Origin: a virus
Lineage: Duplodnaviria > Heunggongvirae > Uroviricota > Caudoviricetes
IMG/VR virus record: IMGVR_UViG_2529292735_000011
DNA: 5,329 bases
Strand: one strand, 5' to 3'
Shown: piece by piece, positions 1 to 5,329 of the stretch
How positions within the stretch are numbered: position 1 is the first letter of the stretch
Layout: each line of letters starts with the position of its first letter
Notes under the pieces: model-generated
Told to the model about the DNA's origin: nothing
The model's database searches: none
What the model saw: the letters and a program-made list of their open reading frames with translations, nothing else
Program-made: the position numbers and the translations under genes

Positions 1-116
1 TGAGCGGCAATATCACGCACAGCGGCGGCAATTTCACCTCAAACGGCATTACCGTGCATACGCATAAACACGGTGGCGTGAAAGGTGGCAGCGATTCGAC
101 AGGAGGCCCGCGGTGA
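1..116 (+). CDS. V: Baseplate central spike protein gpV, C-terminal fragment (5' end lies outside the window)
   Basis: Frame starting at nt 3 reads ...SGNITHSGGNFTSNGITVHTHKHGGVKGGSDSTGGPR and stops at TGA 114-116. This matches my recollection of the P2 gpV C-terminus, and it directly precedes a gpW-like ORF in P2 gene order. The stop overlaps the next start (GTGA). Confidence 0.75.
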   Translation, partial: SGNITHSGGNFTSNGITVHTHKHGGVKGGSDSTGGPR

Positions 117-463
117 CAACCCGCTACACAGGAATGAACCCGGACGGAACGGGAAACCTGAACGATATGGAGCACCTGAAACAGTCAGTCAGGGACATCC
201 TGACCACCCCGCTGGCAAGCCGGGTTATGCGACGGGAATATGGCAGCCTTGTGCCTGATTTGATTGACGAACCCATGAATAACACCACGCGTCTGCAATG
301 CATGAGTGCTGCCGTGATTGCACTGGCACGATGGGAACCCCGCATTGCCCTGGATGCCATCGACGTTGTCTGGAAAGCGGGAGGCCGCGCCGGGGTGACG
401 CTGTCGGGCACTGTCATGCAGACCATGCAGAATGTTGAATTAACCATCACGCTGAGGGAGTAA
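113..463 (+). CDS. W: Baseplate wedge protein gpW (T4 gp25-like)
   Basis: 116-aa ORF with a GTG start at 113, preceded by AGGAGG at 101-106 at good spacing. Size and sequence (TTRYTGMN...SRVMRREYGSL...) resemble P2 gpW. Position between V and J fits P2 synteny. Confidence 0.85.
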   Translation: MTTRYTGMNPDGTGNLNDMEHLKQSVRDILTTPLASRVMRREYGSLVPDLIDEPMNNTTRLQCMSAAVIALARWEPRIALDAIDVVWKAGGRAGVTLSGTVMQTMQNVELTITLRE

Positions 464-466
464 ATC

Positions 467-1362
467 ATGCCCGCCGTTGACCTTTCACAGTTACCGGAAC
501 CCGCCATCATCGCGGAGCCTGACTTTGAGGCAATTCTGGCTGACACAAAGGCCATGATGATTGCGTCCTATCCTGCCGAACAGCGTGAAGCCGTTTCCGC
601 CGCGCTGGAGCTGGAATCGGAACCCCTGAACGTTATCGCTCAACCATGTCGTTTCGTGAAATGCTGTTACGCCAGCGGGTTAACGAGGGCGCACGCGCCT
701 GCATGTTAAGCCACAGCGCCGGGACAGACCTGGACAACCTCGCGGGAAATATGAACACAAAGCGCCTGGTTATCACTCCGGCAACGGATACCACCGACGC
801 GGTGATGGAGAGCGACACCTCGCTGAGACTGCGGGCGCAGCGGGCGTATGACGGCCTGAGTGTTGCTGGCCCGTCAGGTGCATACGAGTATTTTGCCCGC
901 AGCGCCAGCGGTCTGGTGCGTGATGCGCGGGCTATCAGTCCGTCTCCGGCAAATGTGACGGTTTCCATCCTGTCCACTGAGGGCGACGGCACAGCAACGG
1001 AGGCGTTGCTTAATACCGTTCGCGCCGTTCTGAATGCAGAGGACACCCGCCCGGTGGCCGACCGCCTGACCGTACAGAGCGCCAGAATCGTGACATGGCG
1101 GCTGAATGCAAAACTGTACTTTTACCCCGGCCCGGAATCCGAACCTATTCTGGCCGCGGCAGAATCGTCATTCAGGAAGTGGCTGGCTGAACAGGGGCTT
1201 ATCGGTCAGGACGTGGCGTTGTCCGCCATTGCTGCCGCACTGCATGTGCACGGTGTGCAACGCGTGGAGATAATCGAACCCACACAGAATATGGCCATCA
1301 GCGACATACAGGCAGCGCGCTGTGAGTCATTCACCATCAGTGAAGGTGGGCGCAATGAGTAA
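467..1362 (+). pseudogene. J: Baseplate protein gpJ (T4 gp6-like), interrupted by a -1 frameshift near 641-646 (pseudogene or sequencing indel)
   Basis: ATG at 467 follows the W stop by 3 nt. The N-terminal part, 467..~643, reads MPAVDLSQLPEP...ESEPLNVIAQ and then runs to a stop at 707-709. The homology continues in the -1 frame as (T)MSFREMLLRQRVNEGARA... in the ORF 646..1362. Joined across the shift the product is about the length of P2 gpJ and is collinear with it. The stop at 1360-1362 overlaps the I start (ATGAGTAA). Confidence 0.75.
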
Positions 1363-1886
1363 TTCACTGTTACCACCATCAGCCAGCAATTTCATGCGTT
1401 GTGCCGAAGCCGTCGGAACACGCATTACAGACATTCCGGTCGACCTCAACACGCTGTGGTCGCCGGACACCTGCCCGGTGCACCTGCTGCCTTATCTCGC
1501 CTGGGCGTTTTCCGTTGACCGCTGGGATCGCAACTGGCCGGAAGAGACAAAGCGACAGGTGATTCGTGATGCATGGCTGATACACCGACACAAAGGGACC
1601 ATCAGCGCACTGCGCAGGGCCATTGAGCCGCTGGGATACCTCATTCGCGTGTCTGAGTGGTGGGAGTTCGGCGGAGAACCGGGAACATTTACCGTTGAAG
1701 TCGGCACGCTGGACAGTGGCGTGACGGAGGAAATGTATCTGGAAATGGAGCGGTTGATTGCTGATGCCCGCCCGGTCAGCCGCCACACTGACAGGGCTGA
1801 ATATCATTCAGGAGATCCCGGGGGATATTTTCGCGGCGGCAGCAACTTACGACGGTGAAGTCATTACCATTTATCCGGACGATTAA
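1355..1886 (+). pseudogene. I: Baseplate protein gpI, probable +1 frameshift near 1784-1790 (contiguous ORF reads 1355..1858; homologous C-terminus continues in another frame to 1886)
   Basis: ATG at 1355 overlaps the J stop. The translation MSNSLLPPSASNF...LLPYLAWAFSVDRWD...HKGTISALRRAIEPLGYLI...EMERLIADARPVSRH matches gpI. After ...SRH the annotated frame gives an unrelated tail and stops at 1856-1858. The frame shifted by one reads LTGLNIIQEIPGDIFAAAATYDGEVITIYPDD and stops at 1884-1886, 2 nt before the H start; this resembles my recollection of the P2 gpI C-terminus. Confidence 0.6.
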
Positions 1887-2432
1887 GCATGAGTACCACA
1901 ACACGAAAATTTAAAACCATTATCACTGATACTGGTGCCAAAAAATTAGCTCAGGCTGCCGCGCCAGATGGTAATCCTGTCCGCCTGACTCATATGGCCG
2001 TGGGCGACGGTGGCGGCACGTTGCCCACACCAGACAGTAAGCAGACCCGTCTGGTGCATGAGGTGTGGCGACATACTGTTAATCGCGTCATCCTGGACGC
2101 AACACATCAGAACCGCATTATTGCGGAGCTGGTTATTCCTCCTGAAACGGGCGGATTCTGGATCCGGGAAATTGGTGTATTTGATGAGCACGGCGATTTG
2201 ATCGCGGTGGGCAATACTGCCGAAAGTTACAAACCAACCGTTGCCGAAGGATCCGGACGTGCACAAACATTTCGCACCATTCTGACCGTATCCAGCACTG
2301 CCACCGTGGCGCTTACCGTGGATAACACCATGGTGATGGCCACAGTGGATTACGTGGATGACAAACTGAAAGAGCATGAACAGTCACGACGTCACCCGGA
2401 CGCCTCGCTGACCGCAAAAGGCTTTTGTTCAA

Positions 2433-2910
2433 CTCAGTAGCGCCACTAACAGCGTGTCTGAAACGCAGGCTGCAACGCCGAAAGCAGTAAAGGCCGCGTA
2501 TGATCTTGCTAACGGGAAATATACTGCGCAGGATGCCACCACAGCGCGAAAAGGCCTTGTCCAGCTCAGTAGCGCCACCAACAGCGATTCTGAAACGCTG
2601 GCGGCAACACCAATGGCGGTAAAGGCAGCATATGACCTTGCTAACGGGAAATATACTGCGCAGGATGCCACCACAGCGCGGAAAGGCCTTGTCCAGCTCA
2701 GTAGCGCCACCAACAGCACGTCTGAAGCACTGGCCGCAACACCGAAAGCGGTAAAGACAGCATATGACCTTGCTAACGGGAAATATACCGCTCAGGACGC
2801 TACGACAGCACAAAAAGGGATTGTCCAGCTAAGCAGCGCGACTAACAGCACATCTGAAACGCTTGCCGCGACACCGAAAGCAGTGAAAGCAGCTAATGAC
2901 AATGCGAATG
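2433..2910 (+). repeat. In-frame 132-bp tandem repeat inside H (about 3.5 copies, 44-aa unit [44 protein letters not shown])
   Basis: Unit starts at 2433, 2565, 2697 and 2829, all exactly 132 nt apart. The first three copies are near-identical at nucleotide level; the fourth diverges after about 60-80 nt. The repeat also generates the spurious antisense ORFs 2313..2813 and 2429..2719. Confidence 0.9.
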
Positions 2911-3668
2911 GTCGGGTACCTTCTGCCCGTAAGGTGAATGGTAAGGCGCTTTCAGCGGATATTACACTGACGCCGAAAGATATTGGTACGCTTAACTCAA
3001 CAACTATGTCATTCAGCGGTGGTGCTGGTTGGTTCAAATTAGCAACGGTAACCATGCCGCAGGCGAGTTCTGTTGTTTCAATTACGTTGATTGGTGGCGC
3101 GGGATTTAACGTGGAGTCACCTCAACAGGCAGGTATATCTGAACTTGTTCTTCGTGCGGGAAATGGAAATCCAAAAGGTCTTACTGGTGCGTTATGGCGA
3201 CGGACATCGGTTGGATTTACTAATTTTGCATGGGTGAATACATCCGGTGATACCTATGATGTTTATGTTGAAATAGGTAATTACGCCACAGGTGTTAATA
3301 TTCAATGGGATTATACCAGTAACGCCAGCGTAACGATTCATACTTCACCAGCATATTCTGCTAATAAGCCGGAAGGATTAACGGACGGTTCTGTTTATTC
3401 GCTGTATATTTCGCCTCATGAACTTTATCCGGTTGGCGCACCGATCCCTTGGCCATCAGATACCGTTCCGTCTGGTTATGCCCTGATGCAGGGGCAGACT
3501 TTTGACAAATCTGCATACCCGAAACTTGCAGTCGCTTATCCGTCAGGCGTGATCCCTGATATGCGTGGCTGGACTATCAAGGGCAAACCTGCCAGTGGTC
3601 GTGCCGTATTGTCTCAGGAACAGGACGGCATTAAATCGCACACCCACAGCGCCAGCGCATCCAGTACT

Positions 3669-3758
3669 GATTTGGGGACGAAAACCACATCGTCGTTTGA
3701 TTACGGTACTAAAACGACCAGTTCATTTGATTACGGCACAAAAACCACAAATAGCGCA
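3669..3758 (+). repeat. Three tandem 30-nt / 10-aa units in the H distal region ([10 protein letters not shown] / [10 protein letters not shown] / [10 protein letters not shown])
   Basis: Read directly from the translation and nucleotides. The copies differ at synonymous positions, so this is an older protein-level repeat rather than a recent duplication. Confidence 0.55.
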
Positions 3759-4036
3759 GGAGCTCATTCACACAATATACCTGTTGGTCACACTGGCGCG
3801 GGGAATGGTGTATCAGCCGGTTATAACGCTGCGTTAGGTACTGGTACCACGTCGAGCGCAGGAGGGCATGCTCACAATGTATATATCGGTGCCCATAACC
3901 ACACTATCGGCATTGGTGCTCATGCCCATTCTGTCATTATTGGTCCCCACGGACACACCATCACCGTTAATGCTACGGGGAACGCAGAAAACACCGTAAA
4001 AAACATCGCATTTAACTATATTGTGAGGCTTGCATA

Positions 4037-4615
4037 ATGACATTCAGAATGAGTGAACAATCACGGACCATAAAAATTTATAATCTACTGACCGGAACCA
4101 ATGAGTTTATTGGTGAAGGTGATGCACACATTCCACCTCATACAGGTCTGCCTGCAAACAGTACCGATATTGCCCCGCCAGATATTCCGGCTGGCTTCGT
4201 GGCCGTTTTCAACAGTGATGAGGCATCGTGGCATCTCGTTGAAGACCATCGGGGTAAAACGGTTTATGACGTGGCATCAGGGGACTCGTTATTTATTTCT
4301 GAACTCGGTCCATTACCGGAAAATGTTACCTGGTTGTCGCCGTATGGAGAGTATCAAAAGTGGAACGGCACATCCTGGGTGAAAGATGCAGAAGCAGAAA
4401 AACTGTTTCGGATAAGGGAGGCGGAAGAAACAAAAAACAGCCTGATGCAGGTAGCCAGCGAGCATATTGCGCCACTTCAGGATGCCGTAGATTTGGATAT
4501 TGCAACGGAGGAAGAGGCATCGTTACTGGCTGCATGGAAGACATACCGGGTATTGTTGAATCGTGTTAATACAGCGGTAGCAGCGGAAGTTGAGTGGCCA
4601 GTCGCCCCACAATAA
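4037..4615 (+). CDS. tfa: Tail fibre assembly chaperone (lambda Tfa-like, with a P2 gpG-like C-terminal end)
   Basis: 192-aa ORF whose ATG overlaps the H stop (TAATG), with GTGAGG upstream. The sequence [54 protein letters not shown]... is very close to my recollection of lambda Tfa. The C-terminal ...[26 protein letters not shown] resembles the conserved end of P2 gpG. It sits immediately downstream of the fibre gene, as cognate chaperones do. Confidence 0.85.
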
Positions 4616-4621
4616 AGAGAA

Positions 4622-4651
4622 AAAGCCATCGATTGAAATATAGATGGCTTT
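4622..4651. terminator. Bidirectional rho-independent terminator between the convergent tfa and acetyltransferase genes
   Basis: Perfect 9-bp inverted repeat AAAGCCATC (4622-4630) / GATGGCTTT (4643-4651) around a 12-nt loop, with a GC core GCCATC/GATGGC. On the minus strand the stem is followed by TTTTTCTCTTTATT; on the plus strand by TTTATGT. It lies in the 43-bp gap between the two stop codons (4615 and 4659). Confidence 0.6.
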
Positions 4652-4658
4652 ATGTACT

Positions 4659-5231
4659 CTATTTATACAATACAACACCGCTCTTTTTAGTTATATATGT
4701 GCAGTTCGATGGTATATCTTTATTTATAAAAGACATTGCACCTATTTTTACATTATCCCCAATTTTACGTGATAATCCAATGATGCAACAATTAGCTCCG
4801 ATATCAACGTTACTACCAATTTTTACTCTTGAACCAGGCATGTCACCATCTATCTGCCCAATGGTAGTATTCTGCCGTAACACCAGATTTTCACCAGCAT
4901 CAACAGCAAAATGAACAACAATTCCAGCATGATGGGGAATTGTTAACCCTTTTCCAATATTTGCGCCCAATCCAATTTCACAACCAAATTTGTTAATTAT
5001 TTTATTGTTTAACTTTTTGGCTGCTGTCTTATGTAATTTATTACCATTAATATACATTTCGTTAGCCAACCGCCACCAGAAAAGGAAATTCCGGTTACGC
5101 TGTTTTTTCTCTCTTAAAAGCCTCCAGATATCCATACGTTTCCGCCGAATTACTTCATATTTCCAGAAGTTTTTTAAATTAGTAGAGTTCCCAAATAAAA
5201 CAAAGTGAATTGCCATTAAGTAAGACAGCAC
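4659..5231 (-). CDS. Hexapeptide-repeat (left-handed beta-helix) O-acetyltransferase, WcaB / serine acetyltransferase (CysE) family-like; AT-rich cargo gene
   Basis: Minus-strand ORF with stop TAG at 4659-4661. The six-frame track extends it to 5264, but the best start is the GTG at 5231-5229, which lies 6 nt after a strong SD AAGGAG (5243-5238). An ATG at 5216 is an alternative. The core ...GCEIGLGANIGKGLTIPHHAGIVVHFAVDAGENLVLRQNTTIGQ...VKIGSNVDIGANCCIIG...IGDNVKIGAMSFINKDIP has the [LIV]-G-x-x-x-x hexapeptide periodicity and the I-x-H-H-x-G-I-V-V motif of the CysE/WcaB/NodL transferase family. It is visibly AT-rich with A/T-rich codons, unlike the upstream phage genes. Confidence 0.75.
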   Translation of the reverse strand: MLSYLMAIHFVLFGNSTNLKNFWKYEVIRRKRMDIWRLLREKKQRNRNFLFWWRLANEMYINGNKLHKTAAKKLNNKIINKFGCEIGLGANIGKGLTIPHHAGIVVHFAVDAGENLVLRQNTTIGQIDGDMPGSRVKIGSNVDIGANCCIIGLSRKIGDNVKIGAMSFINKDIPSNCTYITKKSGVVLYK

Positions 5232-5282
5232 GATAATCTCCTTAATTATTATTTCAGACCACACATGTTATAAGGTTAAGAG

Positions 5283-5311
5283 ATTATAAAATCCTGTTGT
5301 TTGTTATTCAA
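5283..5311 (-). promoter_or_regulatory. Candidate sigma70 promoter for the acetyltransferase gene
   Basis: On the minus strand: TTGAAT (plus-strand 5311-5306), a 17-nt spacer, then consensus TATAAT (5288-5283), about 50 nt upstream of the GTG at 5231. AT-rich DNA produces such hexamers by chance, so this is sequence-only support. Confidence 0.45.
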
Positions 5312-5329
5312 AAACAATTTTCTGAGAAG

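Follow-up and report, generated by a model that had tools for sequence, protein, structure and literature searches.

The three frame breaks in a P2-like tail module of Escherichia coli DEC14C are very probably consensus errors of the draft assembly rather than mutations of the prophage. The window, by which we mean the whole 5,329-bp stretch of DNA that was analyzed, is the entire contig AIHM01000016.1 of GCA_000250455.2, the draft assembly of this strain from 2012. A first-pass annotation, made from the sequence alone, had described a single-nucleotide frame disruption in each of the consecutive genes J, I, and H. Alignment to intact relatives showed that these disruptions are present in the deposited sequence and that the description was correct to the base. 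The relatives also provide the evidence on how the disruptions are likely to have arisen.

The contig carries a P88-like (Xuanwuvirus, Peduoviridae, P2-like) tail module, consisting of V', W, J, I, H, and G, together with a hexapeptide acetyltransferase gene (Table 1). In the open reading frame (ORF) map, the module runs V-W-J-I-H-G on a single strand with neighboring genes overlapping slightly, and co-linear annotated genes occur in E. coli A1, P88, O26:H11 11368, and seven other loci. Matches to GPW_gp25, Baseplate_J, Tail_P2_I, Phage_tail_fib, Phage_fiber_2, Collar, and Caudo_TAP were all above the Pfam cutoffs on the window ORFs. Judged by gene order, domains, and nucleotide identity to P88 (96.6%), the window is a P2-like (Peduoviridae, Xuanwuvirus) tail and baseplate module. 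The annotation of relatives and the Pfam domains bear out the earlier identification of W, J, I, H, and G as P2-like tail genes; likewise, the ORFs and domains uphold the view that W, G, and the distal part of H are intact. Escherichia phage P88 (Xuanwuvirus P88) has the same gene order and the same Pfam domains, and its DNA is 96 to 97% identical over positions 1 to 2756 of the window, whereas its distal H and G are unlike those of the window and are followed by a second, inverted fiber/assembly pair. Other Xuanwuvirus prophages, found in many E. coli, are 97 to 100% identical to the window in their DNA but have no frame breaks. The distal fiber, G, and the acetyltransferase gene of the window resemble those found beside the side tail fibers of other coliphages, and the GC content of the acetyltransferase gene is about 0.36 vs 0.55 to 0.6 in the tail genes.

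Table 1. Features of contig AIHM01000016.1, with the three one-base indels placed within the genes that they interrupt.
Feature	Position	Strand	Evidence and remarks
Baseplate spike gene V, 3' end, truncated by contig start	1..116	+	PF18946 Apex; aligns with "phage baseplate assembly protein V" of E. coli A1 and P88
W (gp25-like baseplate wedge), intact	113..463	+	PF04965 GPW_gp25, E 1.4e-13; 116-aa gene in relatives too
J (baseplate J/gp47 family)	467..1362	+	896 nt vs 897 nt in relatives (298 aa)
Indel 1, one A short	642..643	+	Alignment; AA vs AAA in every relative
I (Tail_P2_I)	1355..1886	+	532 nt vs 531 nt in relatives (176 aa); PF09684, E 8e-51, on 167-aa ORF 1355-1858
Indel 2, surplus C	1788..1788	+	Alignment; CACACT vs CACAT in relatives; outside any homopolymer
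H (tail fiber)	1889..4037	+	2149 nt vs 2148 nt in relatives (715 aa)
Indel 3, TTTT vs TTT in relatives	2423..2426	+	Alignment; inside first unit of 132-nt repeat array
132-nt tandem repeat within H, 3.7 copies, coding 44-aa tail-fiber repeats	2416..2900	+	Tandem Repeats Finder, repeat search, four PF03406 stretches
G (tail fiber assembly protein), intact	4037..4615	+	PF02413 Caudo_TAP, E 6e-39; exact protein on 581 contigs
Hexapeptide-repeat acetyltransferase, low-GC cargo gene, intact	4659..5231	-	"Serine acetyltransferase" in relatives; Hexapep matches weak, below Pfam cutoff

Each break can be placed and repaired by comparison with E. coli A1 and six loci that have an identical H protein, which are the closest intact relatives. 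In all of these J, I, and H are uninterrupted, and the window departs from them by three indels of one base each and by no others. J is split in two because one A is missing: the window reads C641-A642-A643-C644 where the relatives have CAAAC, leaving an 80-aa ORF (467-709) and a 238/219-aa ORF (646 or 703 to 1362) that holds the Baseplate_J domain. In I, an extra C at 1788 (GCCACAC(1788)TGACAGG vs GCCACATGACAGG in relatives) costs ORF 1355-1858 its final 32 codons, and the lost C terminus runs on in the frame of ORF 1758-1886. H is split by an extra T (GGCTTTT(2423-2426)GTT vs GGCTTTGTT in relatives) into a 183-aa N-terminal ORF (1889-2440, PF12571) and a 527-aa ORF (2454-4037) with four PF03406 repeats and PF07484 Collar. 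The sense of the indels differs, one being -1 and two +1. When all three were reversed, J, I, and H read through at 298, 176, and 715 aa with no further stop codon. The first-pass annotation had proposed aligning the region to closely related intact P2-like prophages and had foreseen the repairs, namely one more A around 643, one base less around 1787, and a run of three Ts from 2423. The relatives have exactly this sequence, and the repairs restored all of the ORFs.

The indels are private to this record. When an 80-nt query spanning each of them was compared with 5,426 complete E. coli genomes, exact matches numbered 0 of 1006 matching records for indel 1, 0 of 547 for indel 2, and 0 of 1331 for indel 3, and in every case the best match was identical apart from a one-base gap. 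Among about 15 billion proteins, the 80-aa J, 167-aa I, and 183-aa H fragments and the 527-aa remainder of H were confined to this contig. The repaired proteins, on the other hand, are found elsewhere in identical form, J and I on at least 1000 other contigs each and H on 34. Neither the 80-mers nor the fragments, within those two collections, revealed an inactivating mutation common to independent assemblies. Use of the 238-aa C-terminal J fragment as a query for the same frameshift elsewhere returned two metagenome contigs that were uninformative, one with a stretch of N across the site (L003) and the other beginning at window position 644 (L004). A further protein, STK56581.1, clusters with the 80-aa J fragment, but we rejected it as the same event, since its indel is a different one a few codons downstream and TMSF is kept.

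Substitutions tell us about the recent history of these genes. Across positions 1081-5329, 4,247 bases of the window align with a modern isolate, L008 (GCA_047729945.1), without a single substitution, and two insertions are the sole differences; indels aside, I, H, G, and the acetyltransferase gene have 0 nucleotide differences. To the left, in positions 1-1080, 26 sites depart from L008, which makes the window a mosaic. The best complete genome for this part is 98.5% identical, and the sole additional contig encoding an identical W protein is a more distant relative; because there is no near-identical DNA relative of 1-1080, zero amino acid changes can be claimed for the J half, but zero substitutions cannot. 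J differs from L008 by 23 nucleotides, all of them synonymous, and over J, I, and H together there were 0 amino acid changes in 1,189 codons. Such a combination has the signature of purifying selection, which would have acted right up to the present. Relaxed selection, in the form of nonsynonymous changes or substitutions accompanying the indels, was not found in J, I, H, or G relative to L008, and the alignments to relatives revealed no further marks of decay inside the window, such as deletions or insertion sequences; the remainder of the DEC14C prophage is on other contigs. Taken together, three indels unaccompanied by any substitution or amino acid change are not what neutral decay would leave, but they fit the consensus errors of an early draft.

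Base-calling or consensus error is the cause that we infer, and its likely source would be 454 pyrosequencing followed by Celera assembly. Hazen et al. 2012, the DEC collection paper, reportedly used this same 454/Celera method. The 2012 E. coli drafts of the same laboratory and sequencing center were made from 454 Titanium 3-kb paired-end libraries and assembled with Celera 6.0 (PMC3491183), and suspect frameshifts have been described in other DEC drafts (PMC5592225). Like the indel errors of early 454 drafts, those in DEC14C are one base long, are private to one draft, and split otherwise perfect genes, and two of the three are length miscalls in a homopolymer. They differ in that the affected runs are only three bases long and the third indel is not in a run, whereas all 16 of the window's homopolymers of 5 to 6 bases have the length seen in the relative. 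With errors in two 3-base runs and one outside any run, the pattern as read from the alignments is different from simple homopolymer error. Furthermore, a 454 consensus of normal depth would, as a rough estimate, be expected to contain far fewer than three errors per 5.3 kb, and a local cause must therefore be assumed. Low coverage, or reads from a second related prophage, may have aggravated matters in a short, repeat-bounded contig.

One version of assembly artifact deserves separate consideration, in which DEC14C has two related P2-like prophages whose reads were merged in a short contig to give a chimeric consensus. The contig is just 5.3 kb long and ends inside conserved phage genes, and among complete E. 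coli genomes that match at all, the number of matching places has a median of 2 and reaches 18. The mosaic structure of the window, which parts from L008 on one side of position 1080 and is identical to it on the other, also speaks for such merging. Yet these phages are normally mosaic in this way, and misassembly is not needed to explain it. In addition, two of the indels fall to the right of position 1080, where a mixture of reads ought to have introduced substitutions too but the window otherwise matches L008 exactly. We regard a chimeric consensus as possible but unlikely.

An argument can also be made for very recent, genuine pseudogenization, in which the DEC14C prophage or the sequenced laboratory stock acquired three independent frameshifts that left a dead tail module in a cryptic prophage. 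The first-pass annotation had put this reading beside assembly indel error without choosing. The evidence comes down clearly on the side of assembly error, given the private indels, the common repaired proteins, the lack of substitutions to the right of 1080, and the synonymous-only differences in J, and it gives no support to a decaying cryptic prophage. There are grounds for taking real mutation seriously: the indels do stand in the deposited sequence, they avoid the long homopolymers that are the usual place for 454 errors, and real frameshifts and deletions are known in relatives. For example, a 182-aa H fragment that ends almost at the same site as the DEC14C break is on 118 contigs of other strains. 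A guessed 80-mer with a 2-nt deletion, constructed for this fragment, had no exact full-length match among complete genomes; in O26:H11 11368, H is intact. The second example is L007 (GCA_049209255.1), a decayed P2-like prophage of the same type with an identical H protein. In L007, however, about 1.6 kb (S'-V-W-J') and capsid genes have been deleted, whereas the window has no deletions, insertion sequences, or amino acid changes. The deleted arrangement of L007 was found again in four further places.

Against genuine pseudogenization stands the excess of indels over substitutions, along with the finding that no indel is common to any other assembly. Indels in E. coli are reportedly about 1/10 as frequent as substitutions, according to mutation accumulation work by Lee et al. 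2012. At that ratio, the probability of three indels arising ahead of any substitution is about 1e-3 or less. Moreover, once J was broken, there would have been no selection favoring additional mutations. We therefore consider recent pseudogenization improbable, and it seems very improbable that the P88-like prophage of DEC14C or of the sequenced stock took three +1/-1 hits within 1.8 kb without a substitution. If such frameshifts were real, they would suggest a localized, frameshift-specific mutational process acting on tail genes; the outcome would be routine prophage inactivation, but the mutational pattern would be odd.

Finally, functional recoding, whether by programmed ribosomal frameshifting or through deliberately split genes, has practically no chance of being correct, and nothing was found in its favor: programmed frameshifting was rejected because J, I, and H are uninterrupted in all relatives examined, which match the window at the three sites apart from the indels. 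In addition, the shifts disagree in direction, and no slippery heptamer was seen on visual inspection of the aligned sequence around the sites. P2-like phages have one programmed -1 frameshift, in the E/E' tail chaperone genes, which lie outside the window.

Draft-assembly error thus remains our preferred explanation, and the frame breaks are almost certainly not a real feature of the prophage, which makes the finding an ordinary one. Its importance is chiefly a matter of data hygiene. The breaks would account for six spurious fragment proteins that are already in protein databases (EHX95791 to EHX95795). The comparison used here also offers a cheap and reusable check for telling a draft frameshift from a true pseudogene without access to reads. 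The check has four steps: the indel is repaired, the exact repaired protein is looked for elsewhere, the broken protein is looked for elsewhere, and substitutions are counted against indels. Taken at face value, the record would lead to the tail module of DEC14C being called defective and its prophage cryptic. In the true DEC14C genome, all three genes are most probably uninterrupted, with J encoding 298 aa, I 176 aa, and H 715 aa; the module would then work as it does in P2, with V as the spike, W, J, and I forming the baseplate wedge, H acting as the receptor-binding fiber, and G serving as the chaperone for H assembly.

The entire sequence of contig AIHM01000016.1 (GCA_000250455.2, Escherichia coli DEC14C) is identical to the 5,329-base window. 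The left half of the window matches Escherichia phage P88 and further Xuanwuvirus phages (Peduoviridae) at 96-97% identity, and prophages resident in several complete E. coli genomes show 97% identity across the entire window. In those complete-genome prophages, J (298 aa), I (176 aa), and H (715 aa) are each uninterrupted. In gene order, domain content, and nucleotide identity, this is a typical tail module of P88-like (P2-like) prophages. In the tail cluster, the acetyltransferase gene separates G from the gpU side, and the block made up of the fibre end, tfa, and this gene recurs at 93-94% identity in the unrelated coliphages JL22 and vB_EcoM-Ro157c2YLVW, which gives it the look of a mobile cargo cassette accompanying the receptor-binding end of the fibre.

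Features of the tail module, with the three frame breaks compared with relatives
Feature	Position	Strand	Description
V end, then W, J, I, H, G		+	P2-like tail module
J indel	642-643		AA in window, AAA in relatives; one base missing
I indel	1788		CACACT in window, CACAT in relatives; one extra C
H indel	2423-2426		TTTT in window, TTT in relatives; one extra T
132-nt tandem repeat	2416-2900		inside H; 3.7 copies; 44-aa units (PF03406)
30-nt tandem repeat	3681-3750		distal H; 2.3 copies; encodes 10-residue units
Hexapeptide acetyltransferase gene	4659-5231	-	low GC, about 0.36; "serine acetyltransferase"

The first-pass annotation had claimed that J, I, and H each carry a single-base frame disruption, and our results bear this out. 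Global alignment of the window to E. coli A1 and to six loci of other assemblies returned the same three single-base indels in both cases, with no further indels in the tail genes; the relatives' genes are uninterrupted, and their sequence agrees with the forecast position and direction of the indel at all three sites. As expected of split genes, Pfam placed Baseplate_J on the C-terminal J fragment, Tail_P2_I on the truncated I, Phage_tail_fib on the 183-aa H head, and four fibre repeats plus the Collar domain on the 527-aa H remainder. When the three indels were undone, open reading frames of 298 (J), 176 (I), and 715 aa (H) were restored, with no other stop codons. Full-length H homologues are 671, 715, 759, or 803 aa long, and these steps of exactly 44 aa suggest that repeat copy number is polymorphic among E. 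coli prophages.

The indels are private to one assembly. We searched 5,426 complete E. coli genomes with 80-nt queries, one centered on each indel. None of the records matched (1006 for J, 547 for I, and 1331 for H) contained an exact copy of the indel-bearing 80-mer, and the best matches to each query were identical at all bases apart from a one-base gap. An exact look-up among about 15 billion proteins placed the frameshifted J (80 aa), the frameshifted I (167 aa), and the two H products (183 and 527 aa) on this contig only. Repaired J and repaired I were each found on at least 1000 contigs, repaired H on 34, and G on 581; the commonest J allele in the databases is identical to the repaired J protein.

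The same annotation offered two readings of the frame breaks, a decaying cryptic prophage or errors of assembly. With indels seen in a single assembly, flanks identical to intact alleles, and repair yielding proteins known from elsewhere, assembly error is strongly supported; the reading as a cryptic prophage is not supported. A genuine and recent triple pseudogenisation of J, I, and H is improbable. It would have to accommodate the wide occurrence of the repaired proteins, and the signs of true pseudogenes that we tested were lacking: the indels are in no other assembly, and nothing points to relaxed selection. Specifically, we fetched contigs encoding the repaired H protein and aligned them to the window. 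Against an intact isolate (L008, GCA_047729945.1), positions 1081-5329 contain no substitutions in 4,247 aligned bases, two insertions being the sole differences, and I, H, G, and the acetyltransferase gene are free of nucleotide substitutions. Left of 1080, the window and that isolate have distinct alleles, with differences at 26 sites; 23 of these fall in J and all 23 are synonymous. The lack of amino-acid changes in repaired J, I, and H (0 of 1,189 codons), together with the long, synonymous-only divergence of J, shows that purifying selection has continued on these genes to the present. Furthermore, substitutions are reportedly about ten times commoner than indels in E. coli mutation accumulation (Lee et al. 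2012), so that, on this ratio, the chance of three indels preceding any substitution would be about 1e-3 or less. Once J was broken, the second and third indels would have brought no selective gain. The uninterrupted J, I, and H of all relatives examined rule out both programmed frameshifting and split genes.

The allele boundary at about 1080 is sharp, and could reflect either ordinary phage recombination or an assembly join of two prophage copies. At positions 112 and 747, the window is unlike every relative examined.

Frame loss and decay do occur among related loci. One locus encoding the same H protein (GCA_049209255.1) has decayed by deletion of about 1.6 kb (S'-V-W-J') and of capsid genes, whereas no such deletion is present in the window; its decayed region lies at 6231-9162 with host genes close by, and there are four similar places besides. 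A 182-aa N-terminal H fragment (P0003), ending in LTAKLCSTQ and a stop, is encoded on 118 contigs, one of them a 5.3-Mb chromosome, of E. coli DEC8E and other strains. Its break corresponds to about 2414-2440 of the window, nearly the same spot as the H indel, but implies another kind of change, with a net effect of -2 nt. Being common to independent assemblies, it appears to be a real frameshift of H that runs through a lineage. In another assembly, an 80-aa J fragment (P0017, STK56581.1) arises from another single-base indel, which lies a few codons beyond the J indel, at about 650-660 of the window. The accession style suggests an NCTC long-read project, so this frameshift may be another assembly error.

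As for the source of the probable assembly error, two of the three indels are miscalled lengths of three-base runs, the classic type of pyrosequencing error; as a caveat, none of the window's 16 runs of 5-6 bases is miscalled, and one indel lies outside any run. The DEC collection drafts were made in 2011-2012, and the paper on them, Hazen et al. 2012, reportedly used the same 454 Titanium/Celera method as a related paper. E. coli drafts from the same laboratory, sequencing center, and year were produced from 454 Titanium 3-kb paired-end libraries with Celera 6.0 assembly (PMC3491183). In addition, another group suspected sequencing or assembly errors behind cas3 and cse1 frameshifts in DEC9A, DEC9E, and DEC10D (PMC5592225). 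By our rough estimate, rather than a measured rate, three errors in 5.3 kb exceed the expectation for a normal-depth consensus. The contig is short, its ends lie inside conserved phage genes, and several related prophages are usual in an E. coli genome (median of 2 matching places per genome); low local coverage, or admixed reads of a second prophage, could thus plausibly have aggravated the problem. The H indel falls in the first unit of the 132-nt tandem repeat, an array that is hard for reads of about 400 nt, our estimate of 454 Titanium read length. Overall, the frame breaks are of no biological novelty.
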